Source: a virus. From it: 64,000 bases of DNA. Below are positions 2,036 to 37,567 of the stretch, in pieces (positions within the stretch are counted from its first letter, which is position 1; each line of letters opens with the position of its first letter). The translations under genes were made by a program, and so were the position numbers. Below the pieces are notes generated by a model. That model worked only from the letters and a program-made list of their open reading frames with translations. It did not search any database and had not been told where the DNA came from. The stretch is from IMG/VR virus record IMGVR_UViG_3300047388_000292, positions 1-64,000 of that record; one strand, given 5' to 3'.

Positions 2036-3102
2036 GCAGCCACCGCTCGCCTGCGATCAACAGCAGCTTGCCAGGCATCCAACCATCGCCACGAGTTGTC
2101 CTCGATCAGCAAGTTATCCCTGACAAACTCGCGCCCACGCTGACCTTCCTCCTCGCGCAACGACGGCTCTCGAAGCAACCGTAAGACAGCACGATGCCAG
2201 TCTCGAGAGCGATCCTTGGCTATGCACCCAACATCAGCCTGTCTGACGAACTCGAGATACTCCGGCTGAGGGGAAGCGACCCAAGGCACTCCAAGCGCCG
2301 AATACTCGAGCACCTTCAACCAACTCTTGCCCTGCCAGTTGTACCGATTCTCTGCAAGCGGAGCAATACCTACATCGAGGTGCGCAACCAAATGTGGGTA
2401 CTCAAGAAACTCCACGATGCCAGTCTCTCCCAGTTCCTCGTCGAGCCACAGAGACTTCCGAACATCCTCCTTGAGTCCTACAACCCGAAACCTAGCGCTA
2501 ACCTCCCTGATCGCTAACCCCACACCTCCACGAGTGACTTCGAGATCTCCAGGATGATTCTTCACCGTGCCACCCCATCCAACCGTATGCCCGTCTCGTT
2601 GTGCTCCGATGTCGAGGTAGTGCTGAGGAACACAATTACGAACCAGATGCACGCGGCCATGAGAAGCGTAGTTCTTAGCGATCCCAGGCGTCGATGCAAC
2701 CACCACATCCGCCATCGAGCACGCCCGCTTCAGATACTTCCACCCGGTCATGTTCTGGTTGTAAGACTTGTGCTGTGGATGATTACTAGGGAGATGCTGT
2801 AAGTCGTCGTCAATATCGACAACAACCGCTATCCCAAGCTCCTGGTAGAACGGAATCGAATCTGCATAGACCTGTTCCGCAGGACGCTGTAAGACGAGTA
2901 CATCAGCATCAGGAGGATCAACGATTCCCACAACCTCAATAGATCCGTCGTCATTTATCCCACTGCACTCGATCTGAATCTTCTCGTAATCAATGATCTC
3001 GATCTCGCCACGATCCGTAAGGACCTGAGCCGGCCATCTAACCCTCAACATCCCACACGCCTGAAGATCTGATGTAGTGATGGCGACACGCAACTTACCC
3101 AT
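2032..3102 (-). CDS. glycosyltransferase, GT-B fold (GT4-like)
   Basis: VVVDIDDDL, ADVVVAST, VGWGGT, LDVGIAPL...KSWLKVLEYSALGVPWVAS motifs. Confidence 0.9.
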   Translation of the reverse strand: MGKLRVAITTSDLQACGMLRVRWPAQVLTDRGEIEIIDYEKIQIECSGINDDGSIEVVGIVDPPDADVLVLQRPAEQVYADSIPFYQELGIAVVVDIDDDLQHLPSNHPQHKSYNQNMTGWKYLKRACSMADVVVASTPGIAKNYASHGRVHLVRNCVPQHYLDIGAQRDGHTVGWGGTVKNHPGDLEVTRGGVGLAIREVSARFRVVGLKEDVRKSLWLDEELGETGIVEFLEYPHLVAHLDVGIAPLAENRYNWQGKSWLKVLEYSALGVPWVASPQPEYLEFVRQADVGCIAKDRSRDWHRAVLRLLREPSLREEEGQRGREFVRDNLLIEDNSWRWLDAWQAAVDRRRAVAA

Positions 3103-4503: not shown

Positions 4504-5772
4504 TCATGTAACCGGCGCTCGTTGAAACTGCTGTGCATCTGTCCACATCTTCGCGAACGTCCCAGTCGATGGATCCCACACCACGTCGACCTCCGCCAAC
4601 GGGCCATGCCGGAACTTCAGCATCTTGATCCGCATCTTCGACTGCGCTCGCATCCCTTCGTCCTGCATCATTCCGAGGTAGAGGTCAGCAGCCTGGTACA
4701 CGGAGATGCTGCCACCCATATTCGTCCGTGATGACCCTCCCTCGGCGGCGTCCCTGCCATCCTGCGAGACCATGATGACCGCGGTATCGGTATCCATCGC
4801 GATCGTCTTCAAGTCATTGGTGATGTTCTCCAACTGCTCCCATTTCGGCACCCGCGTCGCGTACGACATCTTCATCCGCTGCACATAATCGATCGCACAG
4901 ACATCAGGCTTGTATCTCTCGATCTCAGCGTGGACACGATCGATCGTCCCTCCGCCGAAGCGGTCAAGAATCAATATCTCTCCCCGCGCCTTCGAGTAGA
5001 CCCGAGAGACGTCGCGCCAATGCTTGACCTGCATATCACTGAGGTCGTGACGCATGAAATCACTGTGCTTCCAGTGCATGACCATCGTGTGCAGACGATC
5101 TTCAACCTCGCGAGCAGACATCTCGGCCGAAAGCAAGAGTGCAACCTTGTCGTCTTCGAAAGCGCCTAGTAAATTGACCCCGGTAAGGAAGGATTTTCCG
5201 AGCCCGCTGAAACCGGCGTTCGTGACAACCCATCCCGGCTTGATGCCATCAGTCGTCTGATCGACTATCGGGATTCCGAGCGGCGTGCCTGGACGATGCT
5301 TTCCGTGCTCTTCTTCATACGCCTGGATCCGGAGTTCGAAGTCCTCAGAGAATCGTGCAACACGGCCGGAAGGAATGACCGTCGCAATCTCGCGAGCCGC
5401 CTCGAGCATGACCTCGTGCAAACTTCCTCGGCGATTCCAGTACTCCGGGTCCGACTTCGGCATCATCGAAAGTTCGATGACCTTCGCCTCGAAGTAGCGC
5501 CGGCGGACCTCAGCTAGGAACTCATCGAGTAGAGCCTCTACTGGCTCCGAGCTGTACTCGCCTCGCCAGTTCGGGAAGTTGTGCTGGACGAAAGACGCTG
5601 AGGGACAAGATCCATACTTGCGCGCGTACTCAGACGCCCAAGAGAAGATCTGGCCTACTTCTCGTCCCGGTTCATCCTGAGTGAAAAGCTCAGAAACAAC
5701 TCCCCGGGAGATGAGAAGATGTATGTTGCCCTCCGCCAAACTCTTGGCAACAAGGGCACGCTGAACGTCCGT
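4504..5772 (-). CDS. dnaB: DnaB-like replicative helicase
   Basis: Walker A GFSGLGKS, LSAEMS, AIDYVQ, MVSQ, YQAADLY, KFRHG; start probably ACG 5772 (see findings), otherwise TTG 5739. Confidence 0.88.
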   Translation of the reverse strand, partial: TDVQRALVAKSLAEGNIHLLISRGVVSELFTQDEPGREVGQIFSWASEYARKYGSCPSASFVQHNFPNWRGEYSSEPVEALLDEFLAEVRRRYFEAKVIELSMMPKSDPEYWNRRGSLHEVMLEAAREIATVIPSGRVARFSEDFELRIQAYEEEHGKHRPGTPLGIPIVDQTTDGIKPGWVVTNAGFSGLGKSFLTGVNLLGAFEDDKVALLLSAEMSAREVEDRLHTMVMHWKHSDFMRHDLSDMQVKHWRDVSRVYSKARGEILILDRFGGGTIDRVHAEIERYKPDVCAIDYVQRMKMSYATRVPKWEQLENITNDLKTIAMDTDTAVIMVSQDGRDAAEGGSSRTNMGGSISVYQAADLYLGMMQDEGMRAQSKMRIKMLKFRHGPLAEVDVVWDPSTGTFAKMWTDAQQFQRAPVT

Positions 5773-9252: not shown

Positions 9253-9699
9253 CTATCGACGCTTTTTCTTCGTGATCTCGTCAAGAAGCTCTGCGACCAT
9301 AGCATCAGCGTGGCCGTTCTGAGTGCGAGAAACATGGAAAATCCTCACGATGCATCCTCGAGAGCGGAGTCGAGAAGCGAGACGATGAGCCGCAGTCCTG
9401 TAGGGCATCAGGCTTCGCTCCCTAACGCACCACAGACCCAGTACTTGCATGACAACGAGCTTAGAATCGCTGTAAATGCTGATCTCATCGCCGATTCCGA
9501 GGCTCTCCGTCAACGCCATATCGAGCGCGAGGATCAGCCCGGAATACTCGCCGGCGTTGATCGTGATCGAGCCGAGGAATCTGGTCTCCCGAGCGATCTC
9601 CAAGCCATCCAAGTAGAGGATCGCTCCACAAGCGCAGAACGTGAAGGTCTTTCGATCCCTAGTCCGTAGACCAGCGTCGCAGTATGCCTCGTAGATCAA
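9253..9699 (-). CDS. ribonuclease HI family protein
   Basis: YCDAG, TINAGEYSGL, IYSDSKLVVMQ, HVSRTQNGHADAM (acidic D-E-D-D set). Confidence 0.88.
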   Translation of the reverse strand: MIYEAYCDAGLRTRDRKTFTFCACGAILYLDGLEIARETRFLGSITINAGEYSGLILALDMALTESLGIGDEISIYSDSKLVVMQVLGLWCVRERSLMPYRTAAHRLASRLRSRGCIVRIFHVSRTQNGHADAMVAELLDEITKKKRR

Positions 9700-11210
9700 A
9701 CAACAGTCCTCTCGGCGATCTCGACCTTCCAGCCCTTCTGGTTGTAGAGCATGTGAATACGAGTGCGGTACTGCGAAGCCAGCAGATCGACCTTCGGATC
9801 TCGGACATCGATGACCACGGCATTCTTCTTGCCTGGCGCCGGCCGCATGATCCGTCCTACAGGCTGCTTGACGACTTCGACGTTGCGAAAGGGGTACGCG
9901 AGGACCACGCGATCGAGCATAGGCGCATCGAATCCTTCTTCAGCGATCGTCGACAAGACGCAGATGTACGGAGAATCTGAGATCAACTCTCGGACTTCCA
10001 CAGCTTCTTTCCCGCTGCTCTCGCCTGTGAGCATGATCGTCGAAGCCGCAGCCTCTGCGTGTAACCCTTTGATCGTCTCGTAGATCGCCTTGAGATGCAT
10101 CTTACGACGCGAGATGACGAGGATCCGATGGCCACCCGTCATCTCCCCAATGACCTCCTCGGCGATCATCTCGTTGCGCGCAGAATCCGAACACAGCGCA
10201 GACATCATCGCGTTGTAGTTGTTGCGGACCACATCCATAATCGGTCGACCGGTCCTACGACTGATCACGACCTCGCCGTCGCCGTCGAGGCGCTCAACCT
10301 TCTGCGTCGAGTGGTAGTCGAATTCGAAGTCGGAGGTCAGAACGCGCACAGAAGGCGTCACGAGGGAATCTCCAGCCTCCTCAGCAGTCGTCTCGTGGAC
10401 GATTGGACCGATGATCGCCTGAACGATCGGGAAGAACAGAGGATCGCGGTCAGGTGTCGCAGAGACACCCCAGCGATAGCGGGCAGGGAACCTCTGGAGG
10501 ATGTCTTGAAGCGTCTCAGCACTCGTGTGGTGGCACTCATCCACGATCACCGACCCCCAAATGTCGAAGAACCGCCGGTGAATGGTGTGAAGGTCCACCG
10601 CCATGCGCTCGAGCTCGTTGTAGCGCGCCCAAATCGCCTGCCTAAGCGCCACCGTGATCGGCCGGAGATTTATCTCGCTCTCGCCGAGGTAGCCGGCGTC
10701 GTACCCAAGCTTCTCCTTGATCTGCTCGACCCACTGGCGCGCGAGCGCAGCCTTGTCGACAATGATGATCGTGGGCTGATCTACGCGCCTCAGAGCCTCG
10801 AGCGCGACTGCGGTCTTCCCCGCGGCGGTCGGAGCCTCGTAGATGCCCTGCTCGCACGTCACGAGAGCCTGCACAGCAGGTTCCTGGTAGTCGCGCATGG
10901 GGACCGGATCCAGGTTCAAGGGCCAGAACTCGTAAAAGCGCCGGCAGTCCTCCCACTCGATCGTCATGCCCCACTGAGCCATCCCCTGCGAGAACTGGTG
11001 CAGGAAGCCACGAGGGAGCAGGAGATCGCGTCCGTCGCGCAGGTAGAGGGGAATCTGGTCTGGCAGCCTCTCAGCGCCCCACACGAGCTCTCGGAGCGCC
11101 GTAGGTTTCGAGGGATTCGCAATCTGTAGGGCGCCCAGGAGCGACGGTAGGACATGCGGAGGGACCTCGGCCTCGCGCACACGGATGAATGAATCGACCC
11201 TGACCAACAT
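9696..11210 (-). CDS. SF2 DExH helicase
   Basis: RDYQ, APTAAGKT, VDECHH, SATP, EGFDAPMLD, QPVGRIMR. Confidence 0.92.
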   Translation of the reverse strand: MLVRVDSFIRVREAEVPPHVLPSLLGALQIANPSKPTALRELVWGAERLPDQIPLYLRDGRDLLLPRGFLHQFSQGMAQWGMTIEWEDCRRFYEFWPLNLDPVPMRDYQEPAVQALVTCEQGIYEAPTAAGKTAVALEALRRVDQPTIIIVDKAALARQWVEQIKEKLGYDAGYLGESEINLRPITVALRQAIWARYNELERMAVDLHTIHRRFFDIWGSVIVDECHHTSAETLQDILQRFPARYRWGVSATPDRDPLFFPIVQAIIGPIVHETTAEEAGDSLVTPSVRVLTSDFEFDYHSTQKVERLDGDGEVVISRRTGRPIMDVVRNNYNAMMSALCSDSARNEMIAEEVIGEMTGGHRILVISRRKMHLKAIYETIKGLHAEAAASTIMLTGESSGKEAVEVRELISDSPYICVLSTIAEEGFDAPMLDRVVLAYPFRNVEVVKQPVGRIMRPAPGKKNAVVIDVRDPKVDLLASQYRTRIHMLYNQKGWKVEIAERTVV

Positions 11211-15202: not shown

Positions 15203-15922
15203 TCAGTTCTTTACAGCGATATACGGGTAGAACTGAGCATGTCCCGGGTCTGACCATATCTGCATGAAGGCAGAGAAGTGCTGAGTTATCCGTCCCTGTG
15301 ACAATGCGCCATTGTAGACAGCAATATCCTGCCCGAGAGCGATCGTATTCGATGCCGCAGCCGCTACAAGTAACTGAGTATTTCCTGTCGTTGAAGCTGC
15401 GACTGTTCCAGACAGCACCTGAGATGCGACGAGCACACCGTCTACATATATCGCCTGCACCTGAGCCGTAGGATCGTATGTGCCTTGAATGATCTGTGGA
15501 GGTCCGGTGAGGACACTGGCTGCAGTTAGCGTGTGCTGGGCCCCAGTCCACATACTCCAAGCGATCCCAGATCCGATTACCTCGAGTTGAGCTTGGCCGG
15601 GAGCATTGAATAAGTAGAAGGATGTCCCGTGGATAAGTTCCTGTACCGTGACTCCTTCGACAGTTACACCGCTCCCAAATGCAAATCCAGCGACTGATGC
15701 CTGAAATCCATCGAGCTGTGCTGTATACCCGCCTCTAGCACTGGTGAAGGGATCATCCTGTACCAGCGGAGGAAGTCCGAGCGTCGGGGATCCAACTGCT
15801 GGGAGGACGATTCCACCTACATCATCGAAGACATAGTTGAATGTAGATGGCTCTCCTAGCATCCAGCGAGACTCTAGGTACGGAACCTCAAGTTGTGCAT
15901 CTCTGAGGAATCTCTGTGCCAT
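15203..15922 (-). CDS. minor tail protein with LamG/ConA-like domain
   Basis: WMLGEPS, GTYD...IYVDGVLV, DIAVYNGALS..I..H; start at MAQRF. Confidence 0.75.
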   Translation of the reverse strand: MAQRFLRDAQLEVPYLESRWMLGEPSTFNYVFDDVGGIVLPAVGSPTLGLPPLVQDDPFTSARGGYTAQLDGFQASVAGFAFGSGVTVEGVTVQELIHGTSFYLFNAPGQAQLEVIGSGIAWSMWTGAQHTLTAASVLTGPPQIIQGTYDPTAQVQAIYVDGVLVASQVLSGTVAASTTGNTQLLVAAAASNTIALGQDIAVYNGALSQGRITQHFSAFMQIWSDPGHAQFYPYIAVKN

Positions 15923-15923
15923 A

Positions 15924-18812
15924 TCAGATCCACGCCGAGTTCCATGCAACAGTGGCGGAAGGACTCCCAATTGGGTTTGAGCCGGCAAGTTGAAGAATGT
16001 TATCCGCAGGCTGGATCTCAGGCCACCGCTGATTGTTGGTGTCAAACATCTGCATCACCGACGCCCCAGACTTGTTTGTCAGCGTATGGTTGAATGCGTC
16101 AATCTGAACAAAGTCCCCTTGTGCAATCGTCCCGTCTAGCGCGAAGCTAAACCCAGTCGAGAGGTTGTAGAGGACTGGATTTGTGATCCCTCCATTGATC
16201 GTCACGAGCGGTCTCGCGACCCACGTTCCCTTGTTTGTCGCCACGGCCTGCTGCGTCGGACCTGCTGATTGCGTAAGAGGTTGATTCGATGGCAGTGAGG
16301 TGGGGACATTGTATGTAAGCGGATATGAACGAGGGTAAGACCGCCCGAAGTAGACACCTGATCCAGTTAGCAGAGGAACGATTGCACTCACCTGAACCGG
16401 ACACAAGATCCTCGGATCAGATGCTCTCACGGCAAACTGAAAATCTCTCGTGAACCTAGTCCCGGTCGCATTTTGAGATATGTGAGATATCGCCGGCGAC
16501 TGCACGGTTCTAGCATTTAGGACAAAATCACAGGGCATGATTGCGTCTACACGCCAGTCAAGGAACGCCCACTGGCCTCCGAGCTGCGTAGCCGTGAGCC
16601 CAACGAATCCCGATTGCTTGTAACCAAACGCTTGAGCCAGCGCTCCTGTCAGCGTTGTGAAGCAAGTCGCTAGAACAGTCGGAGATTGGACTGCATGCGG
16701 ATCTTGCAAATAGACCGTCGCGACTACCGTGTCGTCGATCGTCTGCATTTGAACCCAGATGATGCTTGGAGTCGAGATCTGAGGACTAAGGGCTGCTGTC
16801 GCCAGTGTTGTCGTCCCAGAAGGCTGAATAGCTTGTATCGCTACCTGCCATGTTGCTCCGGTGTACTGAAGTACAGCCTGGAGATAAGAGTTCGATGCAG
16901 TGGCGGCAGAGATAACACCAATCGACTGCACAGTAGCCGTAGGTTGAAGCGCGACAGATGCCGTCACAACCTCATCGACAAACCCACCGCGAAGATTGTG
17001 GTAAGAGACTGTAGCTCCGCCGCTAAATGACGTGCATCGGCCATTCCCAGGTATCGACAGAGATTGCCCAGACAACTGCGACCAAAAAGCAACCGACTGA
17101 GAATCAAAGAACGCATCGTGCTGGTCCCACCAGTTGAACTTGATCGGGAACTCGGTCAGAGATTGGAGCGCTGCGAAAACAGCTAGCGCTGCGGCTGTCT
17201 GCGACGATACAAGTCCAATTGTCGGAGGAGACCCAAGGACTGCTACAAGATCTCGCTCCATCGCATTGAGTTCAGGTACCGACCCAGCTTCCATTGTGCC
17301 TGCGATCGTAACCGTGTTGTGCGTCGGGATCATTGACTCGCCAATGAGGTAGAGATGGCTCGGAGAATCAACGGAAATACAACGCATCGGGACGCTATCT
17401 ATCTGATTGACAGCAGTGATATATCGGTATTGCTCGTGCTCTGGATAGCGAATCTTGGAGCGACGATAGAGAAGTAGATCCGTCTTACGGCTAAGGCGGA
17501 ACGGACTATCTTCCGTGACAAACTGAACACGATAAGAAATCCCAGTGCATTTTTCGTACAGTCTCGCCCACTTGCTTGTGAGCGTCGGTCGATACCCAAG
17601 TGACCGAGCTAACTCAAGAACTTGGAGCGCAAGATGCTCAAGAGTAGAATCAAACTGAACTTCGCCTTTATCACCCACTGTTCCATCTGTATCGAGCAGA
17701 CCAGCAAGGAGTGCCCGACGTTGTTCGACAGAAGCTTCAAGGTACAAGCGAGGGATATGCTTGTTTCTATAGACGTCTAGATCACGAAGGATAGAAGGAA
17801 CACTTGGCCCTTCTATCGATCGGAAAGAATACGTAATAGGCCCTTTTAGTTTCCTAGTTGCATACCCGTCATGACTGACGTTTTCAATGACCTCTGGGTC
17901 GGCTGAGTAAATCTCTGGACTCCAACGACTTCCATCTCCCAGCCACGCCCCAAACGTATATGGAGCTAATGGAAGCTCTTTTACCACATATTGCAGAGGA
18001 CCAGCAACTCGAACTGCATGATTGACTACTCCATTAGGCCGTGAAGGAGCATGACTGGTATAGAGAGTTGCACGGATTTCTTCGGTTGTATGAATCTTGG
18101 CACTGCCACACCCAGACTTTTCCAACATCTGAATCTTGTGCTGAGCAGATGCGACAGCCGCTTCCGTCTCACTATCAAAGAGACCAATAGGTATGTGGCT
18201 TCTTGCAGGTCCGTAATACGCTAACCATCGGTCACCTTCTCGACATACCCCTCGATATCTAGATGTGGCTAGCTTGCGTCGATTGGAGACCCGAGGTTGA
18301 TGAACACGCTGACGTCGGATACGGGCTTCGAAATCAACTGTCTCCCATAGGTGATCTGCATCGGCAATGATTATTGTTCCATCTGAGAACACAACTTCGC
18401 GACAAGGTCTCCCTGATGGCTGCGGGTAGACGCCTGTGACATTACATGGATGACCAAGATCATCAAATACTTGATCACCTACATGAAGATCACCGAAAAG
18501 TTTCCATCCATTAGGTGTCGGAATAGGATGCGAACATGCGTTCGCTTTTCCGCCCCAATAACTGTCAAACAAAACTTCACCGTGCGCGGCAGGTCGAGGC
18601 TGCCGAGAGTCTCGAAGATCAGGTCCACGCAGTCCAGTGATGTCCTTGACGATGTATCTGTCCGGACGCAATCGATCGTTGATCACGAGCTGGTTGGCGA
18701 GAATGATTGGAGCATTGCGACCGAGCGCAAGCATCTCCGGAATTTCCGGAAAACGATGCTGATAGTTTGGGACCGCAGTCCGTGCTATCTGTTGAGCAAT
18801 AACTGGAGTCAT
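15924..18812 (-). CDS. distal tail protein (Dit) interrupted by an intein
   Basis: Exteins DITGL...PRPAAHG...YWGGK|TVTIAG, ASDPR, NKGTWVARP...GGITNP, PADN; position after the tape measure. Confidence 0.8.
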   Translation of the reverse strand: MTPVIAQQIARTAVPNYQHRFPEIPEMLALGRNAPIILANQLVINDRLRPDRYIVKDITGLRGPDLRDSRQPRPAAHGEVLFDSYWGGKANACSHPIPTPNGWKLFGDLHVGDQVFDDLGHPCNVTGVYPQPSGRPCREVVFSDGTIIIADADHLWETVDFEARIRRQRVHQPRVSNRRKLATSRYRGVCREGDRWLAYYGPARSHIPIGLFDSETEAAVASAQHKIQMLEKSGCGSAKIHTTEEIRATLYTSHAPSRPNGVVNHAVRVAGPLQYVVKELPLAPYTFGAWLGDGSRWSPEIYSADPEVIENVSHDGYATRKLKGPITYSFRSIEGPSVPSILRDLDVYRNKHIPRLYLEASVEQRRALLAGLLDTDGTVGDKGEVQFDSTLEHLALQVLELARSLGYRPTLTSKWARLYEKCTGISYRVQFVTEDSPFRLSRKTDLLLYRRSKIRYPEHEQYRYITAVNQIDSVPMRCISVDSPSHLYLIGESMIPTHNTVTIAGTMEAGSVPELNAMERDLVAVLGSPPTIGLVSSQTAAALAVFAALQSLTEFPIKFNWWDQHDAFFDSQSVAFWSQLSGQSLSIPGNGRCTSFSGGATVSYHNLRGGFVDEVVTASVALQPTATVQSIGVISAATASNSYLQAVLQYTGATWQVAIQAIQPSGTTTLATAALSPQISTPSIIWVQMQTIDDTVVATVYLQDPHAVQSPTVLATCFTTLTGALAQAFGYKQSGFVGLTATQLGGQWAFLDWRVDAIMPCDFVLNARTVQSPAISHISQNATGTRFTRDFQFAVRASDPRILCPVQVSAIVPLLTGSGVYFGRSYPRSYPLTYNVPTSLPSNQPLTQSAGPTQQAVATNKGTWVARPLVTINGGITNPVLYNLSTGFSFALDGTIAQGDFVQIDAFNHTLTNKSGASVMQMFDTNNQRWPEIQPADNILQLAGSNPIGSPSATVAWNSAWI
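17316..18545 (-). mobile_element. class-3-type intein (410 aa) with AP2 and LAGLIDADG endonuclease domains
   Basis: Ala1 ANACSHPIPTPNGW, block B DADHLW, GAWLGDG and LAGLLDTDG, block F MRCISV, block G IPTHN|T. Confidence 0.9.
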
Positions 18813-19159
18813 GTCCCACCAGACGAGTCAAGCTGATCGGTAACCAGCCGAATCAACGCATTTACCTGCTGGGTTAGTGACCGCACCTGAGCACCAATCT
18901 GAGCAACAGTTGGAGGAGCTAAAGCCAAGTAAGCAACGTTGGTGGTTACAGCCGCAATTGCTTTCGCAGTCAATGCATCTTGATTCGCTTCCCGAACCGG
19001 CTGCGTCCAAGTAGTGCCGTCAAACATCCAACCAACGCCCGGCTGTGGAACCACATTCGATACGTCAATCCACGATGAAGGAGCTGCGTCTCCTGAGAAC
19101 TGCTGCGGACCCATAATCACCGTAGCCGGACTGCCGTGATCGAGACACACGAAGATCAT
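18809..19159 (-). CDS. small tail-associated protein
   Basis: PQPGVGWMFDGTTWTQP motif typical of fibre-assembly-like proteins. Confidence 0.6.
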   Translation of the reverse strand: MIFVCLDHGSPATVIMGPQQFSGDAAPSSWIDVSNVVPQPGVGWMFDGTTWTQPVREANQDALTAKAIAAVTTNVAYLALAPPTVAQIGAQVRSLTQQVNALIRLVTDQLDSSGGT

Positions 19160-19707
19160 GACAGCGGACTCACCCAGCGGACGGAGAAGTGCTGGTACGG
19201 CCAGTTCGTTGATCCGTAGCAGTTAGTGGTTGCGGTGCCGACATAATGCGGAAATAGGTACTGCCCTGCGGTCATCTTGACGAGCGCCGAAATAACGGCA
19301 TTACCAATCAAGCCCGCACCCGCATCATGTGCAATCCAAAAACAACCCTGCGGCGTGCCAAGGGAGCCGGATCTGTTGGGTGGAAACAGTTGAAGGTCAA
19401 CACCTATGAACACGCCGCCCGTCGCACCCTGATCTATACGAAGGTTCAAGTCAACCTGATACCACCCATCAATGGGGACATTCGGGCCGTTGTTGAAGGC
19501 ATCGTTGCCCATGCCACCCAACAAGTCCTGAGTGGGGAAGGCGAGGTAGCTGGAAGCAGACACCGTGTCCGCTGCCTGCATGTGCCCTACGTAGATAGGA
19601 GGCGCCGCCGGGATCGGAGTAGCTACAAGTCTCTCTAGGATCGCTACTCGATGCTCCAGACTCGTAGGAGCAGGGATATGTTGGGGATTAGTAACTACTC
19701 TCGTCAT
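19156..19707 (-). CDS. minor tail protein with C1q/TNF-like domain
   Basis: Short coil LEHRVAILER; VPIDGWYQV...ALVKMTAGQY; ATGA overlap with the tape measure stop. Confidence 0.6.
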   Translation of the reverse strand: MTRVVTNPQHIPAPTSLEHRVAILERLVATPIPAAPPIYVGHMQAADTVSASSYLAFPTQDLLGGMGNDAFNNGPNVPIDGWYQVDLNLRIDQGATGGVFIGVDLQLFPPNRSGSLGTPQGCFWIAHDAGAGLIGNAVISALVKMTAGQYLFPHYVGTATTNCYGSTNWPYQHFSVRWVSPLS

Positions 19708-22700
19708 GGTGAAGTCGCCGAGTGCCATGCAATCGCCGCGCCCAGATAGCGCGGGTCAGTTGTCTGTGTAGGATTCGTGAGGTTGACATTGATGTTCTGA
19801 GTATTGGTGGAAGAGATCGAAGCTGATCCAGGCACGAATGGGACTCCGATGCCAGATCCACTCGCCGGGTTCGAGAACTGTGGAAGAAGAGCACCCATCC
19901 CAGTAAACATCGCTGCACGGAATGAAGACCACATCGTCGAAGAAAACGATTGAGGTTGCATCAACTGCCCGTTGAGAGTCATGAGTTGTTGGGTATTCGT
20001 TTCGAGTGCTGCCTCGTTCGAAGCGATCTGACCGATCAACCCCTCGAATTGCGTTGTCTGAGCTGCAGTCATCCCCGACTCGAGCTGAGAGATGGGGAGA
20101 GACGTCAGAGCTTGGATCAGTCGGACCCCTGACAGACCTTGCAGATTCACTGCCCCACCAGTCATCCCGGAAAGCTGCGAAATCAAACCTCCCTGTGCTC
20201 CCTGAAGTGCGTTGATCGATCCCTGTGTTACACCGATGGCTGCCGGCACATTTAGGCCACCCTGGATTGCCCCGATCGTCTGAAGCGCTCCGTACAGAGA
20301 TCCGAAAACCCCAGTCTGGAACTGAGAGACACGATTGATCCAATCGATCGTCGTCTGTCGAATCGCAACAGTCTGGTCTGAGAGCGCCTGCGTATTCTCT
20401 GCGATCTGTTCGGTAAGTTGTCCGATCTGGTCTGATAGTTGCTGTGAAAGGGCTAAGTTTCCTTGTTCATTGGCTTGATGCAAGAACCCACGAGCTTGTG
20501 CAAGTTGCCCTCGAAGGTCTGCGCCGGTCTGCTGAAGAACTCCATACTGAAGCTGTGCAGCAATAGTCGTCGCAGCGCCGCCCATTCCCTGCACTCCCTT
20601 GGCGACGACATTCTGCGCAAATGAAGTCCGACGCTGAAGCACATTGTTCTGGTACTGAGATTGCTGAGTAAAGTACTCAACCTGAGCTTGGAGCAGTTGG
20701 GTGGTGTAATCCGCGATCGATTGATTGAGTTGCTGGATCTGCTGCTCGGCTTGCGCGGCGACATCCTTGTTGCCCTCGGCTTGAGCCTTCTGGAGAACTT
20801 TCGTGTAAGCAGTGATCTGGGACTGAGCATTCGAAACAAGTTGATTCGTAACCGACACACCCTCTTGGCCCTTGCCAAAGAATCCACGGTTCTGCATGGT
20901 GGAAACCTGACCTTGTAGCCCTTGACTTTGCAACCCAAGCGTGTTCTGGATGCCTGACATCTGATCTGAGAGTTCAGTCCCCTCTGCCTGATAAAGCGAT
21001 TCTAAAGCTTGAGCGCTTTCGCCGGAGAGAGTCTGTGATCGCCCAACGAGATTTCCATACTGAAGTGCTAGTTTATTCGCCTGAGCGGCAGGGGAGAGAT
21101 GTTTGTTCTGGTTCTTCAGCTCTGAGATCTTCTTCTGAATCAGAGAGATCTTCAAAGCCTTATCTCGCCTGCCTCTAGATGTTACAGGAGTCTCGTTGTG
21201 CGCAACTCTAAGTTGTGTATTGAGACTGCTGATGCTCTTGTTATTTTCTGTAATCTGATGTTGGTCAGACGCACTTGCACGAACAGAAGCTAGTTGCTCA
21301 ATCTGCAACGGTGTATCTGACGCAAGGCTACGCTCACTAACGTGCAATCCCGACGCAAGTTGTGAGAGCACATCATGCTTGGCACTATCGACTAACTTTT
21401 GTTCTCGACCGATATTACGGTACTCAGTCCTGTATGCCCCAATAGTCGCCGCATCCTGTTGCGCTGGAGTCTCTCTCTGAACCGCAAGCCCCTGCTTATT
21501 CACGAAGATCGAGCTTTGCACAATCTTGTTTGACGCCTGAGTAAACATTGCTTGGACAGCTTGATCGAGCTGATCTAGTGGACCGCCTTGAGCCGTAATC
21601 TGACCAAGGTAGTTCATGAACTTAGTGAAATTCCCAACTACATCGTGCAGACCTGTGGAGAGAAGAGTGATCAACCTCGAGATATCCTTGGGAGAAATTG
21701 ACTGAGTCTGACCAGCGGCTGACAACTGAGCCAGAATCTGTATGAACTTCATGACCTGAGGGAGGGATATATTCAGTTGCGTCGCTGCCAAGCCAGCGCT
21801 TCCTGCTGTCCCAATCCCTCCAAACATGCCGCCTGTCTGCGCCGGCGTGATCGCTACATGCTCAGAAGCACCACCTTCTCCAGCAAGGAACATCGTCGGA
21901 TGATCCACAATCCCGTGGAATCCACCAGCGGCCGGAATGATTCCACCTGACTTATAACCAAGGAACTGTCTAAATGAAATACCACCGGGCATTGGTGTTC
22001 CATCGGCATGACCGTTATACCGAGTCAGAGGACCAGTTCCTGCAGCATTCGCCCACCCAGTCTCGATCCCAGACGGCCCACCCATCGCGGTACCAATAAA
22101 TTGTCCCCCTGTGAGTTGCTGCCCGGGCTGCACACCAGGAGTGAAGTCCTCCATGACATAGACGTTCCCGCGTGCAGTCTTATAAACAACGCCTCCTGTC
22201 CCCGGCCAACCCGGCCAGAGCCCGATCGACATAACAGTTCCAGGTAAGACCGCATCTACGCGTCCTTGCCCTCCAAAGTCCACACCCTGGTCAGTGCGCC
22301 CCAAATGAAGCGCTGAATAAGCCCCATGAGCTCCAGATCCTCCAGGCGCTCCAAACGGAACTCCTGCCGCTCCACTAGGAGCCATTTTCGAAAGAAATGC
22401 ATTAGCAGCAGCAGTAACATTTTTCAACACAGCTCCGCCGAGTACTGACCACGCTCCCCCAGGCCCACTCCACTTTGGCTGAGTTATTGTCTGAGCCGCA
22501 CCTGAACTTCCAAGCGCCCCAGGAGGAATACCGCCCTTCAGGAACTGCTTGTAAGCCCCCGACGTATATGTAGCCCATGCCCCAAGCCCTTGTGAACGCC
22601 ACTTCGAGACTGCCATCTTCGCATTTGTCAGCGGATCGAATACATTCCCAGGGAATGGGAGTCCCAAGATTTGCCACAGCCCTGAAGCACCTGAGGGATT

Positions 22701-25700
22701 GTGCGCGTCGACCGCTCCAGTTGACTCAGCCTCAGCGATAGCAGCCATAAGTGCGGCCATGTTGGGTGGTCCGCCAGCCTGATCCCAAAGACTTTCGAGC
22801 TGACCATATGACTCAATCGTTCCTCCTGCCGCATAAGAGCCCTGTAGAACGTGTGGAGCAGACGATAGATACTGAGCTAGCAACGCTCGCTGACGCTTCG
22901 CATGCTTCGGGTCGGTAGTCAAGACAACCTCGGGGTAACCACCCTCAGCAACTTGAATGATCTTTCCGCCCGGACGCGCTGACTCATACCCGCCAGTTGC
23001 ATGATGACCAATCCCCGCAGCACCACCTCCAGTTCCCCCACCGGCTGCCTGGAACTGCAACCAATTCATCGTGCTGATTGGCCCTAGTGTCTTCATGTCT
23101 TTGCCAGTCAGCGCAGGCGCACCCATAGATTTGAGCGCATTATTCATCAGAGTATTGATCGCTACCAACCCGTTTTGCACGCTCCTGGCAGCAAGATTGG
23201 TATTACCAGCGATTGTCTGATATGCGCCGGTCATCACAGCAACAAGAGCTTGTGACCCCTGCACAGTCCCAGTACCAAGGTTCGTGCTGATGTTTGCGAT
23301 GTTAGTCTGAACGACCTGCTTGACTTGCGTAAGAACATTTCCTGTCGTCGCATTGATTCCAGAGAATGTCGAGTCCCACAACTTTCCAGCAGCCACTACT
23401 GCGGCATTGACTGGATCAAGTTGTTTAGCAAGGAGATTTAGCCCTGTACGTTGTTTCGTAGTCAGATCAGGCATATTGGAGATTGTTATGATCTGACCCT
23501 CGAGCTTATGAAGTTGCGAAGTTGACAACTGAGCAGGATCAGTGATTCCCTTCAGCTCTGTCTGCAATTGCTTGAGTGCAGTGCTCGTTGTGGCCGTGTT
23601 GACGCTCTGAGTCAACACACCACCACCTCTCTGGCCTGGCGCTCCTGTTATCACATCACGCTGAGCACCGACAGGCCCCAACAACGATGCAAGCCCTGGA
23701 GCAGTGGTGCCGTGTGATGGGCCTCCGCCAAACAGCGCAGCAACAACGGTTGGCGCAATGAATGTGCCCAACACAGCAGCAATAGAGCCCGCTCCTATCG
23801 CTACTCCACCTGCAGCGGCTCCACTGCCTGCGCCTGCTGCCGCAGGAGCGATTATGCCTCCAGAACCTCGCACAAACCCAGCAGGAACAGCCCCAGTCAC
23901 TTCTGCGGTCCTGATCTCAACACCAGCAACTCCGCCTCCAGAGATCATCGCTTCCCTGATCGCCGCAGCAGCAGCCGCTCCTCCCTCTTCAAATGCGAGT
24001 CGCATCTCTGCTGCCGGTCCCGTCGCTGCTGCCCCACCGCCAAAAGCATTCTTGAGGCTAGTCCACGCACCCCCAAAGTTTCCAGTCGCGAGTGCTTTCA
24101 GGGCTCCGCCGAGTTGACGGATCATCGACAATGGATGAATCACAGCTTTACCAAGTGCACTGAATCGACTGATTGCTGTCGAGAAGTCCCATGCCTTCCA
24201 AGCAACTAGGAACGCCCCGAACGGAATCAGCACACCGTCATTCCACAGTGTCTTGAAGGGACCTCCAACATAGGTTCCTAGATTCACAAAGCCATCGAGA
24301 ATCTTGGTGAATAGCTCAAGGAAGAGAGTGACCGCTTTAGTCAACGGAGGCGCCACGATCATGTAGAAACGACCAAATCCCTCAATCAGAGGGACTAATA
24401 GATTCAAGAGAGCAATAGCTTCTTGCTTGTGTACCTCGAAAATCGTGTGAAGCTGCTGTTGCCCGCGAGTCGACGTCAGCCAGTCATGCAACTTGTCAAG
24501 CATCTGCGTCAGCGTGGTAACGATCGACTGCGCAGTGCCGGCGTCGGCGTGGAAGATCTGGTAAATGTCTTTGACTAGGATCTCAAGAAAATTCTTCCAA
24601 GTCTCGAAGAGGCCTACCAGATGATCGACAAGGTGGGTTACCTTATTCCAGTTACCAGGATCATTCCACTTCGTGAAGAAGTTATCGACCGCAGTGATGA
24701 AGCCACCCTTGAGAAATGTGTTCGCTACATAATCGATGATCTTCGAGACAAGCTCGAACGCCTGCACAAACGCATGTACTGATTTGGGCAATCTCGCAGC
24801 GAATATGTTCTCAAGATCATTGAAGATCTTCTTGCCGGGGCCCTCTATATATTGGAACAGAGGACGTAGTCCAGCGTCGATAATCTTGAAGTTTCTTGTG
24901 GCCGCATTAGCGATCAACTGCACGTATCCGTACGCCACTCCGACGAGTTGCCCGAGGATTGTCGTAGCAGCCTTCCGGGCATTGCCCGTCGCGTTGTCCC
25001 AATGCTTGTTCAGGTTGTCGACTTGCTTCGCGAGTGCAAGTTCCGCTCCGGCACCAGGACCAAGCTGCGACATCTGGAACTTGAGCTGGGCATTCGCTGC
25101 CGTCTGCGCCTGCGCAAGGTTCTGCTGGGCGGTAGCAGCTTGCTGAGAGTTCTTTCCGTACTGCGCAACAGCAGCGTTGGCCTGCGCCTGCGCAAGCGCG
25201 ACATTCTGAGTATTGGTCTGGAGCGTCTTGTAAAGAGCACTCGTGTCAGAGATCGTCGACTTCATCACTGCAGCATCTGCGCCGCCTCCTACGGCAGTCG
25301 TAGCCAGCGAAGCGCCACCGAGTAGAGCTCCGCCTCCCAACGCCCCAGCGGCCGACCCAGCAAGTCCTATACCGGTCATCAGAAGGTGCTCGAGACCAAG
25401 ACCGGCAAAAGCTCCTAACGAACCTGCAGACGCGTACCTAAGTCCAGGCGTAAATCTACCTCCGCCTCCACCACCCCCTGTAAGCAGAGCCCCAAGACCT
25501 CCTCCGCCGCCTCCATCACCTACTGTCAAAATTAGTCTCGCAGCTTCGTCTCGAGCCATCCTCGCTGCGTAAGCAAACTTGATCGCCGCCGACGACGCCG
25601 GATCGAAGCTACGCGCGATCCCATCGAGTTCACGAGCCATCTGGCGATATCCGATTGACGCCGCGTTGGTGTCCATCGTTCCTTTTCGCAACGAGGCAGT

Positions 25701-26432
25701 AAAGCTGTCGTAGCGACGCTGAGTATTCGTTATGCGATCAACAAGTTGTTGATGAGCAGCCTGTTCCTTTTGAATCGCCAAAAGTTGAGCATCAGTATCC
25801 CGCTGTTGCTGCATGCGGATGTCGTGAACCGCGTTTGCATTAGCAACCTGCTGAGCGGTATATGCTGCAAGGTTGCTCTTGGACTCGTTGAGGATGTCCT
25901 GAACAGCTTTGGACTGGAGCGCATATTGCCGGGCTTCCTCCGTACCGACCTCGTACGCTCGAGCAAGCTTCGAGTACTCCTGAGCCAAGCGCTGCGCTTC
26001 GACCTCTTGCTGACGTGTCAGGGTCGTCTGCTTGTTGAAAGAGTCCTGGAGATTCCCCATGACCGCGTCAAGTCGCTCAGCCTGCTCCGCGAGCTTCGCC
26101 TCCTTGTCACCAGCGGTGTCTGCGGAGCGACTGTAATCATCAAGCGCAGTCTTCGCCTGCCTTACATCACTTGTCTGTTTCTGTGTAGCCTGAGATGCAC
26201 GATCAAGCGCTTGACGTTGCTTGTCGAGGCTTGTGGTCGCTTTATCAACAGATTCAGTTGTCTGCTGCAACCCTTGATCGAGCCCGGCGGTCGGGTGAGA
26301 ACGAACCGTCTCCGCGCCGGCGACCTTCTTCAGAGCCTCAATCTCAGCAGCAAGCTTCGCGAGACCGGGGCCAGCTCGGTCGATTAGATCGACGAGAATC
26401 TCAATAAGGAAGGTTGATGAATCCTCAGACAT
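19704..26432 (-). CDS. tape measure protein with lytic transglycosylase and M23-like domains
   Basis: 2242 aa, Ala/Gln-rich helical; AIAEAES...ASGLWQI...DPLTNAK...GAW; follows the tail chaperones. Confidence 0.93.
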   Translation of the reverse strand: MSEDSSTFLIEILVDLIDRAGPGLAKLAAEIEALKKVAGAETVRSHPTAGLDQGLQQTTESVDKATTSLDKQRQALDRASQATQKQTSDVRQAKTALDDYSRSADTAGDKEAKLAEQAERLDAVMGNLQDSFNKQTTLTRQQEVEAQRLAQEYSKLARAYEVGTEEARQYALQSKAVQDILNESKSNLAAYTAQQVANANAVHDIRMQQQRDTDAQLLAIQKEQAAHQQLVDRITNTQRRYDSFTASLRKGTMDTNAASIGYRQMARELDGIARSFDPASSAAIKFAYAARMARDEAARLILTVGDGGGGGGLGALLTGGGGGGGRFTPGLRYASAGSLGAFAGLGLEHLLMTGIGLAGSAAGALGGGALLGGASLATTAVGGGADAAVMKSTISDTSALYKTLQTNTQNVALAQAQANAAVAQYGKNSQQAATAQQNLAQAQTAANAQLKFQMSQLGPGAGAELALAKQVDNLNKHWDNATGNARKAATTILGQLVGVAYGYVQLIANAATRNFKIIDAGLRPLFQYIEGPGKKIFNDLENIFAARLPKSVHAFVQAFELVSKIIDYVANTFLKGGFITAVDNFFTKWNDPGNWNKVTHLVDHLVGLFETWKNFLEILVKDIYQIFHADAGTAQSIVTTLTQMLDKLHDWLTSTRGQQQLHTIFEVHKQEAIALLNLLVPLIEGFGRFYMIVAPPLTKAVTLFLELFTKILDGFVNLGTYVGGPFKTLWNDGVLIPFGAFLVAWKAWDFSTAISRFSALGKAVIHPLSMIRQLGGALKALATGNFGGAWTSLKNAFGGGAAATGPAAEMRLAFEEGGAAAAAAIREAMISGGGVAGVEIRTAEVTGAVPAGFVRGSGGIIAPAAAGAGSGAAAGGVAIGAGSIAAVLGTFIAPTVVAALFGGGPSHGTTAPGLASLLGPVGAQRDVITGAPGQRGGGVLTQSVNTATTSTALKQLQTELKGITDPAQLSTSQLHKLEGQIITISNMPDLTTKQRTGLNLLAKQLDPVNAAVVAAGKLWDSTFSGINATTGNVLTQVKQVVQTNIANISTNLGTGTVQGSQALVAVMTGAYQTIAGNTNLAARSVQNGLVAINTLMNNALKSMGAPALTGKDMKTLGPISTMNWLQFQAAGGGTGGGAAGIGHHATGGYESARPGGKIIQVAEGGYPEVVLTTDPKHAKRQRALLAQYLSSAPHVLQGSYAAGGTIESYGQLESLWDQAGGPPNMAALMAAIAEAESTGAVDAHNPSGASGLWQILGLPFPGNVFDPLTNAKMAVSKWRSQGLGAWATYTSGAYKQFLKGGIPPGALGSSGAAQTITQPKWSGPGGAWSVLGGAVLKNVTAAANAFLSKMAPSGAAGVPFGAPGGSGAHGAYSALHLGRTDQGVDFGGQGRVDAVLPGTVMSIGLWPGWPGTGGVVYKTARGNVYVMEDFTPGVQPGQQLTGGQFIGTAMGGPSGIETGWANAAGTGPLTRYNGHADGTPMPGGISFRQFLGYKSGGIIPAAGGFHGIVDHPTMFLAGEGGASEHVAITPAQTGGMFGGIGTAGSAGLAATQLNISLPQVMKFIQILAQLSAAGQTQSISPKDISRLITLLSTGLHDVVGNFTKFMNYLGQITAQGGPLDQLDQAVQAMFTQASNKIVQSSIFVNKQGLAVQRETPAQQDAATIGAYRTEYRNIGREQKLVDSAKHDVLSQLASGLHVSERSLASDTPLQIEQLASVRASASDQHQITENNKSISSLNTQLRVAHNETPVTSRGRRDKALKISLIQKKISELKNQNKHLSPAAQANKLALQYGNLVGRSQTLSGESAQALESLYQAEGTELSDQMSGIQNTLGLQSQGLQGQVSTMQNRGFFGKGQEGVSVTNQLVSNAQSQITAYTKVLQKAQAEGNKDVAAQAEQQIQQLNQSIADYTTQLLQAQVEYFTQQSQYQNNVLQRRTSFAQNVVAKGVQGMGGAATTIAAQLQYGVLQQTGADLRGQLAQARGFLHQANEQGNLALSQQLSDQIGQLTEQIAENTQALSDQTVAIRQTTIDWINRVSQFQTGVFGSLYGALQTIGAIQGGLNVPAAIGVTQGSINALQGAQGGLISQLSGMTGGAVNLQGLSGVRLIQALTSLPISQLESGMTAAQTTQFEGLIGQIASNEAALETNTQQLMTLNGQLMQPQSFSSTMWSSFRAAMFTGMGALLPQFSNPASGSGIGVPFVPGSASISSTNTQNINVNLTNPTQTTDPRYLGAAIAWHSATSP

Positions 26433-29129: not shown

Positions 29130-32100
29130 TTACGAGAGGACCTCGATGATCACATACCCTGAACCGCCGTTACCGCCGTTGCCGCCTGCCCCTGGTGCCC
29201 CACCGTTCCACGCACCACCACCACCGCCGCCGCCGCCACCACCTGTGTTCGCCGATGCGCTTGCTCCATTCCCCCCGGCTGCCGTGCCAGACCCACCAGC
29301 TCCAACGCTTCCTACCGCTGCCGAAAGGCTGCCTGCGCCTCCGCCTAGTCCGCCCAGGGTGGCGCTGGTCGGGCCTCCACCTCCACCACCGCTGCCGGTC
29401 TGGCCGAACGGATCACCGCTACCGTCGCCAATGGTCGAGCTGGCGTAGCCGCCTTGTCCGGCTGACGGCTGGCTACTCGCTGCGCCAGTCCCTCCACCTT
29501 GAGCGCCCCAAAGGCGCGAGTTGACGAGGCCAGAGCTATTGGCACCGCCCCCCGCCCCGGGGCCACCGCCGTAAGCTCGTACCGTTGTGGCTCCGATCGC
29601 GACCGTGGTCGCGGAGCCGCCGTTTCCTGGGCTGCCCGCGCTACCAGAGGCTCCTCCGCCGGTCCCTCCGCCCGCTCCTGCGCCTGTGCCACCTGCGCCG
29701 ATGGTTACATTTGCCGTTGTCGCTGAGCCTACCGGCACGATTTGCGACACAAATGTCCCGGAGCAGCCGCCGGATCCGCCGACTTGTGTGGCAGTGCCGC
29801 CTGAGACGCCACCTCCGGCACCCTGCCCGCCGCCGCCTATGGCGGTAACACGTACCAGGGTCGCGCCTGCGGGTAATGGCCAGGATCCGTTCGAGGCCGT
29901 GAGCAGGAAGACGTCGCCGCCCGCGTGCGTGTCATCGACGTTCCCGCGAGCGAACCGGAACGTGCCCTGAGAAGCGCTGGCCGTGTAGCCGTGAAACTCA
30001 CAGTTGACCATTGCCACGGTGCTGTTGCTGGTCACGTCTGTCCTGACCCCGCATTGCATAGTGTGGACTGCGCGGTCGTCCACGGCGACGCACGATTCCA
30101 TCTTGTTCGTTACCCCGCTCATGGCGACCCAGTAGTAACCGTAGTAACCCGTGACACCATCGTCTGCGCAGTTGTAGACACGGCAGTGGGCTAACGTTAT
30201 GTCATTGTTGCCCTGGATCCAGATGCCGTGGCCGCCCGACCATTCCGACACTAGGTGGTGAATATCCAACCATCCGCAGTATTGGATCAGCACAAGGCTC
30301 TGCGTGTTAGTCGCACCACCGTCCTGGTAGACGCGGTTGTGCGCGAAAGTGCTGTGAATCACCTGCGAGAGATACAGCGAGTAGTTGCCTGGCGCGGTTG
30401 ACGTGCAATGGATGGTGTTATGCGACGCGTCAACATGCCGCCACGGCAATCCCAAAGTGATCGTGACGGTACCGCTGGCGGTCGCATTGAGACTCATCGT
30501 CCATGTGGCGGTCGTCGCCCCCGATACGAGATATGACCCTTGGGCGATGCCGGTGCCAATGAGCTGCGCGTAAGTCATGTTCACGCTCTGCGTGCCGGTG
30601 ATGCTGGTGATAGTCGGCGAGCCGTTCGTCGTCGTGCCGGTCACAGTTACGGTACCGGAGGTGATGACAAAAGCCAACTGTTGCGCGGTGATCACGTTGC
30701 CGATCACTTCGACCTCGCTCGCGGCTAAGCCCAGGCCGCGGCCGTTGCTCGTCGTTGAATCGAGGATGTTGCCCTGAATGATTATCTTGCGGCCGAACCA
30801 CGGGTCGAGCTGGGTGGCGCCCGCGAACCCACCGATGAACATTGCGTAGGAGCCGATGCCGACGCAGTTGTTGACGCAGATGTTGTTTGCAACGATGAAC
30901 TGCGAGTATTCGGTCGCGGCGGTGGTGGAAAGCTCGAATTGGATCGCAGCACTGCCGCCGGTTCCGGTCACGGAGCAGTTGTTGCCGATGATCTCCCCTC
31001 GCACCTCGGTGGTGCTCACCGACCCCGTGGTGACAAAGGTGATGCACTCGGTCGCGCAGTTCTCAATGTAGTTGCCGATGGCGTAGCAATGTTGCATGTG
31101 AAGCCCGACAGTGGCGCGCGCCCCGAAAGCAATCGCGTTGTTCTCCGCAACAGTGCAGATCACGCCGGTGAACCGGCAGTACAGAGCGTGCGCCCGAGTA
31201 CAGTTCTCCAGCTCAAGTACCGCAGCGGTCCAGTTCGACACCTGCACCTCGGCGACGAAGATGTCGGAGTTCTGGTTGGCTGAACTGCACCAGATGACCG
31301 CATGCTGCTGTGTTCCGGTTTCGAGCTGGGTGCCGGGGAAGGTGCCTCCGCGCAGGCCCCAGTTTGACACGCCAGCCTGCGGAACCTGGCCACCCCATAC
31401 GCCACCGTAGCCTGCTTTGAATTTCATGTGGACCGTGACGCCCCGCAGATCCCAGGCCACGTTCGACTTTGGCACAAGACCACCAACGATGTACTGGGCG
31501 CCGATGACCCCTATGATCGTCCCGCCGCCATGCGCAGACACGGCATCCTCGGCCGCTTGCCACGCCGCAGTGTCGTCCGTTCCAAATTTCACAGTCGCGC
31601 CACTCGCGACGGTCGTGCTGGCGTTCGCTGGCGTGCCGCCGCCTTGAGTCGTGACGAGGCTCGCGACGTTCCCGGCGACGGTGCTGATGTACCCGTACAG
31701 CATTCCTCCGGCCGTGCCAGCGCCTACAACCATGACGTACTGGCCTGCGTTCGCGGCAGTCGTCCAACCTGCGGTAGCTGACGAGACGGTGTTGGTGCCC
31801 GACGTGATCGCGCCGTCCGCGACGACCTTGGCGTCTCCCTTCGCGTTCCACGGAGCTTGAGCAACAGAGACGATCTCGCGTAACGCCGGAGCGGTGATCG
31901 TGCTCGACCCCATAACCTGGGTACGGCCAAACGCATCGGTCCCGCTCGCGGTCACCGCCGAGGATGGAAGCTGCGGCGTCCAGTTCACGAACGTCGTGTC
32001 GGTCGCCGGGTCATGCCCGATGTTGCCGTTGGCGTTGGAGGTGTAAAGCGCGCCGCTACGGGACACCCACGCGCCCTGGGCGTAGGTTGTGCCGACTAGC

Positions 32101-32450: not shown

Positions 32451-32462
32451 CGGCAGTCCAAA

Positions 32463-33452: not shown

Positions 33453-33461
33453 CTATCGCTC

Positions 33462-33797: not shown

Positions 33798-33859
33798 TAA
33801 TGGTCCTCGCGGCCTTCACGGTAACTAGAAACGCTACGTGCGCGTGACTACTACGGCCT

Positions 33860-34571: not shown

Positions 34572-34577
34572 GCACTC

Positions 34578-37561: not shown

Positions 37562-37567
37562 GACGGC

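Follow-up and report, generated by a model that had tools for sequence, protein, structure and literature searches.

Most inteins occur in ATPases or in enzymes acting on nucleic acids. Those of class 3 have no nucleophile at position 1 and are defined by a triplet of residues, W-C-T, made up of a Trp at position B:12, a Cys at position F:4 and a Thr at position G:5 (PMC5050341). In phages, Kelley et al. 2016 described 13 mycobacteriophage intein hosts, none of them a tail protein (PMC5050341), and a later work found class 3 inteins in only four types of actinobacteriophage host protein, none of them from the tail either, and described an extein switch from TerL to Cas4 together with a conflict between intein and extein trees (bioRxiv 10.1101/2025.01.02.630785). 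That 2025 survey counts 19 host proteins; a tape measure protein is among them, as is an uncertain 'baseplate wedge domain' protein, while the distal tail protein (Dit) is absent (bioRxiv 10.1101/2025.01.02.630785). Here we analysed positions 1-64,000 (the window) of IMG/VR record IMGVR_UViG_3300047388_000292, which comprises 98,427 bp of an uncultured siphovirus-like phage and has a completeness of 100% according to CheckV, and we describe in it a 410-amino-acid (aa) intein of class 3 inserted in the gene for Dit.

The explanation that we consider very probable is that this element is an intact, bifunctional intein, with splicing and LAGLIDADG endonuclease functions, which parasitises the single Dit gene of the phage. 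It would be a selfish element with a constitutive, obligatory splicing, and its lineage in Dit would come from inteins of P-loop sites. The host gene and its insert are laid out as follows:

15924..18812, minus strand: precursor open reading frame (ORF) of 962 aa, a single frame without stops, composed of Dit N-extein, intein and Dit C-extein (stop codon included)
18546..18812, minus strand: N-extein, 89 aa, first portion of the N-terminal ring domain of Dit, ending in YWGGK (Lys-1 at 18546-18548)
17316..18545, minus strand: class 3 intein, 410 aa, Ala1 to Asn410, residues 90-499 of the precursor
15927..17315, minus strand: C-extein, 463 aa, with the rest of the Dit ring domain, an inserted beta-sandwich similar to lectins or carbohydrate-binding modules (CBM) and a C-terminal SPP1_Dit domain, as assigned from Pfam, PHROG and the predicted structure of an intein-free homologue, P0005

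The translation of the intein starts with ANACSHPIPTP, ends with MIPTHN and holds the motifs ADADHLW and PMRCISV, and it is flanked by YWGGK on the N side and by TVTIAG on the C side, with Thr+1 of the C-extein at 17313-17315. The expected spliced product would have 89 + 463 = 552 aa, compared with 550 aa in P0005. A single copy of this intein was found in the whole 98,427-bp record. Its composition is foreign to its host gene, with a GC content of 48.5% and a GC content at third codon positions (GC3) of 38.5%, against 53.8% and 54.2%, respectively, in the C-extein, the GC content of the window being 56.5%.

The intein and its insertion site

The residues expected for class 3 splicing were located in two regions at the ends of the insert:

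18321..18545, minus strand: N-terminal splicing region, blocks A and B, delimited by in-register phmmer alignment to the structures 6bs8, 6rix and 6riy
17316..17429, minus strand: C-terminal splicing region, blocks F and G

In the first of them, the codons of Ala1 (18543-18545), Cys48 (18402-18404), His65 (18351-18353) and Trp67 (18345-18347) were identified, Trp67 lying two residues past the His65 of block B. The second holds the codons of Cys389 (17379-17381), within PMRCISV, and of Thr408 (17322-17324), His409 (17319-17321) and Asn410 (17316-17318), with Thr408 within PTHN. The codon positions of all these residues, and those of Lys-1 and Thr+1, were verified by script. We then counted the conservation of these positions in 141 related inteins that were extracted. 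His65, Trp67 and Cys389 are kept in all 141, Thr408 in 138, His409 in 133 and Asn410 in 140, whereas Ala1 is present in 114, and Cys48 in 123, across every kind of host protein.

The best sequence matches in the PDB were the class 3 DnaB inteins of M. chimaera (6rix and 6riy) and M. smegmatis (6bs8), with E-values from 1e-25 to 7e-25 (phmmer), and the alignment to these structures was in register at both ends (residues 3-70 and 376-410). An AlphaFold2 (AF2) model of the intein, built from 50 aligned relatives, reached a predicted local distance difference test (pLDDT) of 93.8 and a predicted template modelling score (pTM) of 0.90. This predicted structure has the HINT fold, and gave TMt values of 0.81-0.84 against the class 3 mini-inteins 6bs8, 6rix and 6riy; it also matched PI-SceI (Foldseek E-value 6e-19, TM 0.61-0.66). 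On the basis of Ala1, the W-C-T residues, Thr+1 and the in-register match to solved class 3 DnaB inteins, we assign the insert to class 3.

Two further parts of the intein lie between the splicing blocks:

17451..17993, minus strand: LAGLIDADG homing endonuclease domain, intein residues about 185-365
18117..18248, minus strand: AP2-like insert of three strands and a helix, intein residues 100-143, within the linker that joins splicing block B to the endonuclease domain

The endonuclease domain was detected by Pfam LAGLIDADG_3 (31.6 bits) and Hom_end (25.2 bits), both above the Pfam cut-offs. Its two LAGLIDADG motifs keep their acidic residue, Asp204 in WLGDGS (17934-17936) and Asp287 in LLDTDGT (17685-17687), the latter kept in 133 of the 141 related inteins. 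The AP2-like insert was modelled with confidence in the AF2 structure, with strands at 100-103, 106-111 and 118-123 and a helix at 126-143. In sequence searches its best support was weak, an E-value of 0.51 to the AP2/ERF protein 7et4 of the PDB, and a sister intein, that of P0023, gave a full-length Pfam AP2 match below threshold (E-value 6e-4, 20.5 bits). Its location in the linker suggests that it may act as a DNA-recognition region.

The C-terminal part of the protein was used as query against 5.8 billion proteins, and only four relatives were found. Three of them, P0005 (550 aa), P0006 (574 aa) and P0007 (550 aa), lack the insert, with 51-68% identity in the C-extein, and P0005 is 68% identical to the window protein in the C-extein and 84% in the N-extein. 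These intein-free proteins align without gaps through the junction (marked here by a slash), as YWGGK/TVTVAG in P0005, FFSGK/TLSF in P0006 and FMGGK/TITV in P0007, so the 410 residues constitute a clean insertion, from Ala to Asn, followed by a native Thr+1. A class 1 intein starting at Cys4 was ruled out, as the homologues lack ANA before TVT and class 3 structures align in register with the insert from its residue 3 onwards.

The junction lies within the best-conserved stretch of the N-terminal domain, H-G-E ... Y-G-G-R/T-I-T-L-x-G in 134 family members, where the Gly is found in 129, the residue before the junction is Arg in 114 and Lys in 14, and Thr+1 appears in 122. Thr+1, present in these 122 of 134 intein-free members, is native to the Dit family. 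In the AF2 model of P0005 the junction corresponds to the first residue of the beta-strand 87-97 of the beta-sandwich domain. Placement in the most conserved motif of the host is typical of inteins.

The host protein and the origin of its intein

The C-extein matched the Pfam family SPP1_Dit (PF22768) with 29.9 bits over a cut-off of 25, and P0005 did so with 32.5 bits. The matches of the C-extein in PHROG were PHROG 33 (Dit) and PHROG 5577 (minor tail). When the intein-free P0005 was searched exhaustively with phmmer, 1217 relatives were obtained, among which the Sipho_tail N-terminal domain of Dit (PF05709) is present (P0180, 29.6 bits; P0271, 26.2 bits). The longer members of the family bear this Sipho_tail domain together with CBM or lectin inserts, and it is these inserts that account for the extra length of the Dit relatives of 888-1245 aa, in which inteins were ruled out. 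The AF2 model of P0005 (pLDDT 87) matched the baseplate of mycobacteriophage Douge (8zdo_m) and the Dit proteins of SPP1 (2x8k), 80alpha (6v8i) and p2 (2wzp_P), with a whole-chain TMt of 0.68 to 2x8k, and also the CBM2 module of the evolved Dit of J-1 (5ly8). Family and PHROG matches and the predicted structure of P0005 thus identify the host protein as an "evolved" Dit.

No second Dit gene was found in the whole 98,427-bp record, so a contiguous Dit would be obtainable by splicing alone. The first-pass annotation of the window, made from its letters, had placed at 17316-18545 a 410-aa intein with Ala1, the W-C-T residues and Thr+1, inserted at YWGGK/TVT of a Dit protein. These coordinates and motifs were exact, and the identity of the host is borne out by PF22768, PHROG 33 and 5577, the P0005 model and the Sipho_tail domain of other family members. 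The intein-free Dit homologues that it suggested looking for exist, as P0005, P0006 and P0007 read through the junction, and its idea that tail assembly depends on splicing agrees with the sole Dit gene of the record.

The origin of the intein was studied through its relatives. Among the 141 related inteins, 106 immediately follow the GK of a Walker A motif, with Ser or Thr at +1, in hosts that include FtsK, Rad3-type helicases, DnaB, TerL, P-loop_TraG and AAA_10 ATPases. Three more Dit proteins carry inteins of the same clade at the same site, and they are the only further carriers among the 150 best cluster representatives, in such a way that about 97% of the Dit family representatives are free of intein. 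One of them, P0013 (953 aa, junction YRGR/ALDD), aligns end to end with the window protein; another, P0168 (junction GGR/AADD), is a fragment ending after 232 aa; and the third, P0008, is without N-terminus. Two of these alleles, P0013 and P0168, have Arg at -1.

Two unrooted trees were built, one with FastTree for 143 inteins and the other with a mixture model of IQ-TREE for 42 inteins. All four Dit inteins group in a single clade (support 100 and 99), placed inside a clade of 13 rows (support 100) which in both trees consists otherwise of GSGK/T inteins of AAA_10 and P-loop_TraG ATPases. In the surrounding clade of 38 rows, all the non-Dit members are P-loop inteins. This nesting of the Dit inteins in a P-loop clade in both trees makes an extein switch, from a P-loop site of a conjugation-type ATPase to Dit, the parsimonious history suggested by the sequences. 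A direct origin from DnaB was ruled out, as the 38-row clade with the Dit inteins does not contain those of DnaB (P0111). A marker of the lineage that is independent of the trees is the AP2-like insert common to Dit and TraG-type inteins, as its motif was detected in 9 of the 141 related inteins, namely two full-length Dit inteins and all seven of TraG type. The switch onto Dit did not occur in this phage, judging from at least three other, divergent Dit alleles that bear inteins of this clade at this position.

The likeness between the putative donor and acceptor sites was also analysed. The AAA_10 and TraG sites read GSGK/T[IL]A and GSGK/TMT, so that the GK/T-M-T of the TraG type faces the GK/T-V-T of Dit. 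A scan with the Walker A pattern, G-x4-G-K-[ST], failed at the site D-S-Y-W-G-G-K-T, where there is no Gly five residues ahead of the glycine of GK. The Dit insertion site is therefore no true Walker A, and its likeness to donor sites is limited to G-[KR]/T-x-T, three to five residues. The phage has a genuine P-loop of its own at the following gene:

4504..5739, minus strand: DnaB-like helicase (Pfam DnaB_C, 78 bits), with its Walker A motif GFSGLGKS uninterrupted at 5191-5214

Regarding these sites, the first-pass annotation had read the element as an intein of the Ala-starting type, usual after the GK of P-loops such as that of DnaB, which jumped to a Walker A mimic in Dit while the DnaB P-loop of the phage stayed empty. 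The habit of its relatives (106 of 141 at Walker A) and the empty GFSGLGKS site were as described. The jump from a P-loop stands to the extent that the Dit inteins are nested in a P-loop clade in two trees, but the nearest inteins are of TraG and AAA_10 type instead of DnaB, and the jump did not take place in this phage. Similarly, the mimicry holds for the shared G-[KR]/T-x-T and not beyond it, as the full pattern fails and the family consensus is GGR/T. Four Dit alleles with an intein at this site were found.

The comparison of exteins and inteins gave indications of mobility. The N-extein of P0168 is 74% identical to that of P0006 and 32% to that of P0013, whereas its intein is 72% identical to the P0013 intein and 52% to the window intein. 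P0005, the nearest extein relative of the window gene, has no intein. This conflict between intein and extein, the intein-free P0005 and the low GC3 of the intein point to horizontal movement between Dit alleles, which is favoured over a long vertical co-descent.

Surrounding genes and competing explanations

Upstream of the Dit gene, in the same tail operon, a candidate for the tape measure protein was found:

19704..26432, minus strand: tape measure protein candidate, 2242 aa, proposed from its size, its position and its Gly-rich and coiled-coil composition

This candidate has a weak match to an SLT transglycosylase at residues about 1226-1274 (E-value 5e-4, below cut-off), and genes for minor tail proteins follow downstream of Dit. 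Just downstream of Dit, a 280-aa ORF (15203-16045, minus strand) gave a match to Laminin_G_3, a concanavalin-like lectin family, of 26.7 bits for a cut-off of 27.6; its listed TTG start would overlap the 3' end of Dit by about 120 nt, so its true start is probably further in. The replication module adjoins the tail module, with a 504-aa helicase at 9696-11210 (minus strand; PHROG 16, E-value 3e-48) and the DnaB-like helicase at 4504-5739 (minus strand), and a group-1 glycosyltransferase gene is found at 2032-3102 (minus strand; Pfam Glyco_trans_1_4, 33.3 bits). In the presumed head and packaging region, 29130-47488 on the minus strand, the ORFs of 1106, 329, 691, 618, 419 and 759 aa gave no significant Pfam match. 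Searches of 50,697 GenBank phage records with the tail region (megablast) and with P0005 (tblastn) gave no match, and no related locus was found in viral, metagenome and genome collections. By its sequence, the phage belongs to a very divergent, uncultured lineage.

If the insert works as other class 3 inteins do (PMC5050341, PMC6195587), the 962-aa precursor would be translated, and Cys389, at block F:4, would attack the Lys89-Ala90 bond to take the N-extein as a thioester. The N-extein would then be transferred to the hydroxyl of Thr+1, Asn410 would cyclise, freeing the 410-aa intein, and an O-to-N shift would leave a 552-aa Dit with a native YWGGK-TVT, which would go on to form the tail-tip hub ring. 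The freed intein would be expected to cut the intein-less Dit alleles of co-infecting relatives and then to copy itself in (homing). As for its history, an extein switch would have brought the lineage from the GK/T inteins of conjugation-type ATPases onto G-G-[KR]/T-x-T of Dit, with a later spread among Dit alleles.

Several points weigh against this account. The splicing and endonuclease activities are deduced from conserved residues and a predicted fold. PF05709 gave no Pfam match on the window protein, on P0005 or on the genome. In the textbook order the Dit gene comes directly after the tape measure gene and ahead of the tail-tip (Tal) gene, and here two small ORFs without family (19156-19728 and 18809-19159) separate the tape measure candidate from Dit. 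Two of the four Dit intein alleles, P0008 and P0168, are fragments. The sister group of the Dit inteins within the 13-row clade has a support of 30 in FastTree and is an open fork in IQ-TREE, and as the trees are unrooted the direction from P-loop to Dit is one of parsimony. Finally, the likeness of homing sites among relatives was compared at the level of protein.

An alternative reading, which the first-pass annotation put forward as a conditional gating of tail assembly and which we regard as unlikely, is that the intein has been co-opted and its splicing constitutes a conditional checkpoint on virion morphogenesis, where a Cys48-Cys389 disulfide, or zinc, would lock the Dit precursor under oxidative or metal stress, in such a way that tail tips would be finished only in a reducing, healthy cell. 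Its model is the DnaBi1 intein of M. smegmatis (Msm DnaBi1), for which a reversible mechanism based on a Cys48-Cys389 disulfide has been described (PMC6195587), and for which inhibition by zinc and chlorine species is also reported (PMC7360933, PMC8557812). Both cysteines of this redox trap are kept in register in the window intein, in GRPC (45-48) and RC (388-389), a contiguous Dit requires splicing, and the insertion falls where a core strand of the ring domain begins, within the motif that the family conserves best. However, Cys48 is present in 123 of the 141 relatives whatever the host protein, and splicing as such depends on it in Msm DnaBi1 (PMC6195587), so that its presence is uninformative on selection for regulation. 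It is plausible that the conservation of Cys48 and Cys389 reflects a regulatory capacity, which would imply no adaptation of this particular copy. Furthermore, the Dit orthologue nearest to the window protein manages without intein, as do about 97% of the family representatives, and the sporadic distribution, the intein/extein conflict, the preserved endonuclease motifs and the low GC3 are signs of a mobile parasite.

Very unlikely is a dead or decaying intein, which would imply either a defective phage or a 962-aa precursor that works unspliced with a bulky insert tolerated in the tail hub, as the long end branch of the window intein (0.56, the longest of the Dit clade), its unusual Asn2 and Cys4 near the N-junction (relatives have mostly Leu or Val at position 4) and a splicing predicted from sequence and modelled fold are opposed by intact catalytic and structural hallmark residues, a frame open across 962 codons, a very confident AF2 model of the intein, the 100% completeness given by CheckV and the low likelihood that a ring-forming domain would tolerate 45 kDa inserted where one of its core beta-strands begins. 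The intact, selfish and constitutively spliced intein is thus the reading that we retain.

Comparison with known systems

The mycobacterial class 3 DnaB inteins (Msm DnaBi1, 6bs8 and 6own; M. chimaera or Mch DnaBi1, 6rix and 6riy) align in register with the splicing domain of the window intein, starting at residue 3-4 and reaching its terminal THN, with an E-value of about 1e-25, and share with it Ala1, Trp B:12, Cys F:4, Thr G:5, the His-Asn end, a non-catalytic Cys48 and the Lys at -1. They differ in being located at a true helicase Walker A, and in that the crystallised forms are without endonuclease, whereas the window intein has a beta-sandwich tail protein as host, a Thr+1, a full LAGLIDADG endonuclease and the AP2-like insert. 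The closest non-Dit inteins, 46-50% identical, are those of the metagenomic P-loop_TraG (PF19044) and AAA_10 (PF12846) proteins P0016, P0017, P0019-P0021, P0023, P0025, P0027 and P0034, although they occupy the genuine Walker A of ATPases and range in length from 404 to 478 aa.

Phage-borne class 3 inteins with LAGLIDADG endonucleases are also known from actinobacteriophages and mycobacteriophages, in TerL, a Cas4/RecB-like protein, a DNA helicase and a minor capsid protein (PMC5050341; bioRxiv 10.1101/2025.01.02.630785). PI-SceI, the VMA1 intein (1vde and 1lws), has the same layout, with a splicing domain, an inserted DNA-recognition region and a two-motif LAGLIDADG endonuclease, but it belongs to class 1 (Cys1), its host is a eukaryotic V-ATPase and the identity is about 16%. 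On the side of the extein, the evolved Dits (SPP1 gp19.1, 2x8k; J-1 CBM2, 5ly8; 80alpha, p2 and Douge) resemble it in their ring domain, SPP1_Dit domain and lectin- or CBM-like sandwich, and differ in their lack of intein and in an identity of about 8-12%.

No relevant result came from full-text literature searches that combined intein with 'distal tail protein' or 'minor tail protein'. When the intein was compared with the 50,697 GenBank phage records, 655 matches were obtained, the best of them below 40% identity, and none of 60 records sampled across these matches had a tail annotation, all being helicase, terminase, exonuclease or similar, or unannotated.

The locus adds a non-enzymatic, ring-forming tail hub protein to the hosts of inteins, and offers a natural and fairly clean case of the departure of an intein from the Walker A niche, with conjugation-type ATPases as the inferred donors. 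It could be a useful test case for the minimal flanking residues required by a class 3 intein and its endonuclease, and a candidate scaffold for splicing outside P-loop contexts. The Dit intein also makes testable, without demonstrating it, the idea of splicing as a gate on virion assembly; if the checkpoint were true, conditional splicing would control the assembly of a virus particle instead of a DNA enzyme. Within the literature searched, Dit is a new host protein and a new insertion site for a known type of element, and the intein of the tape measure protein means that tail-related inteins are not wholly unprecedented.

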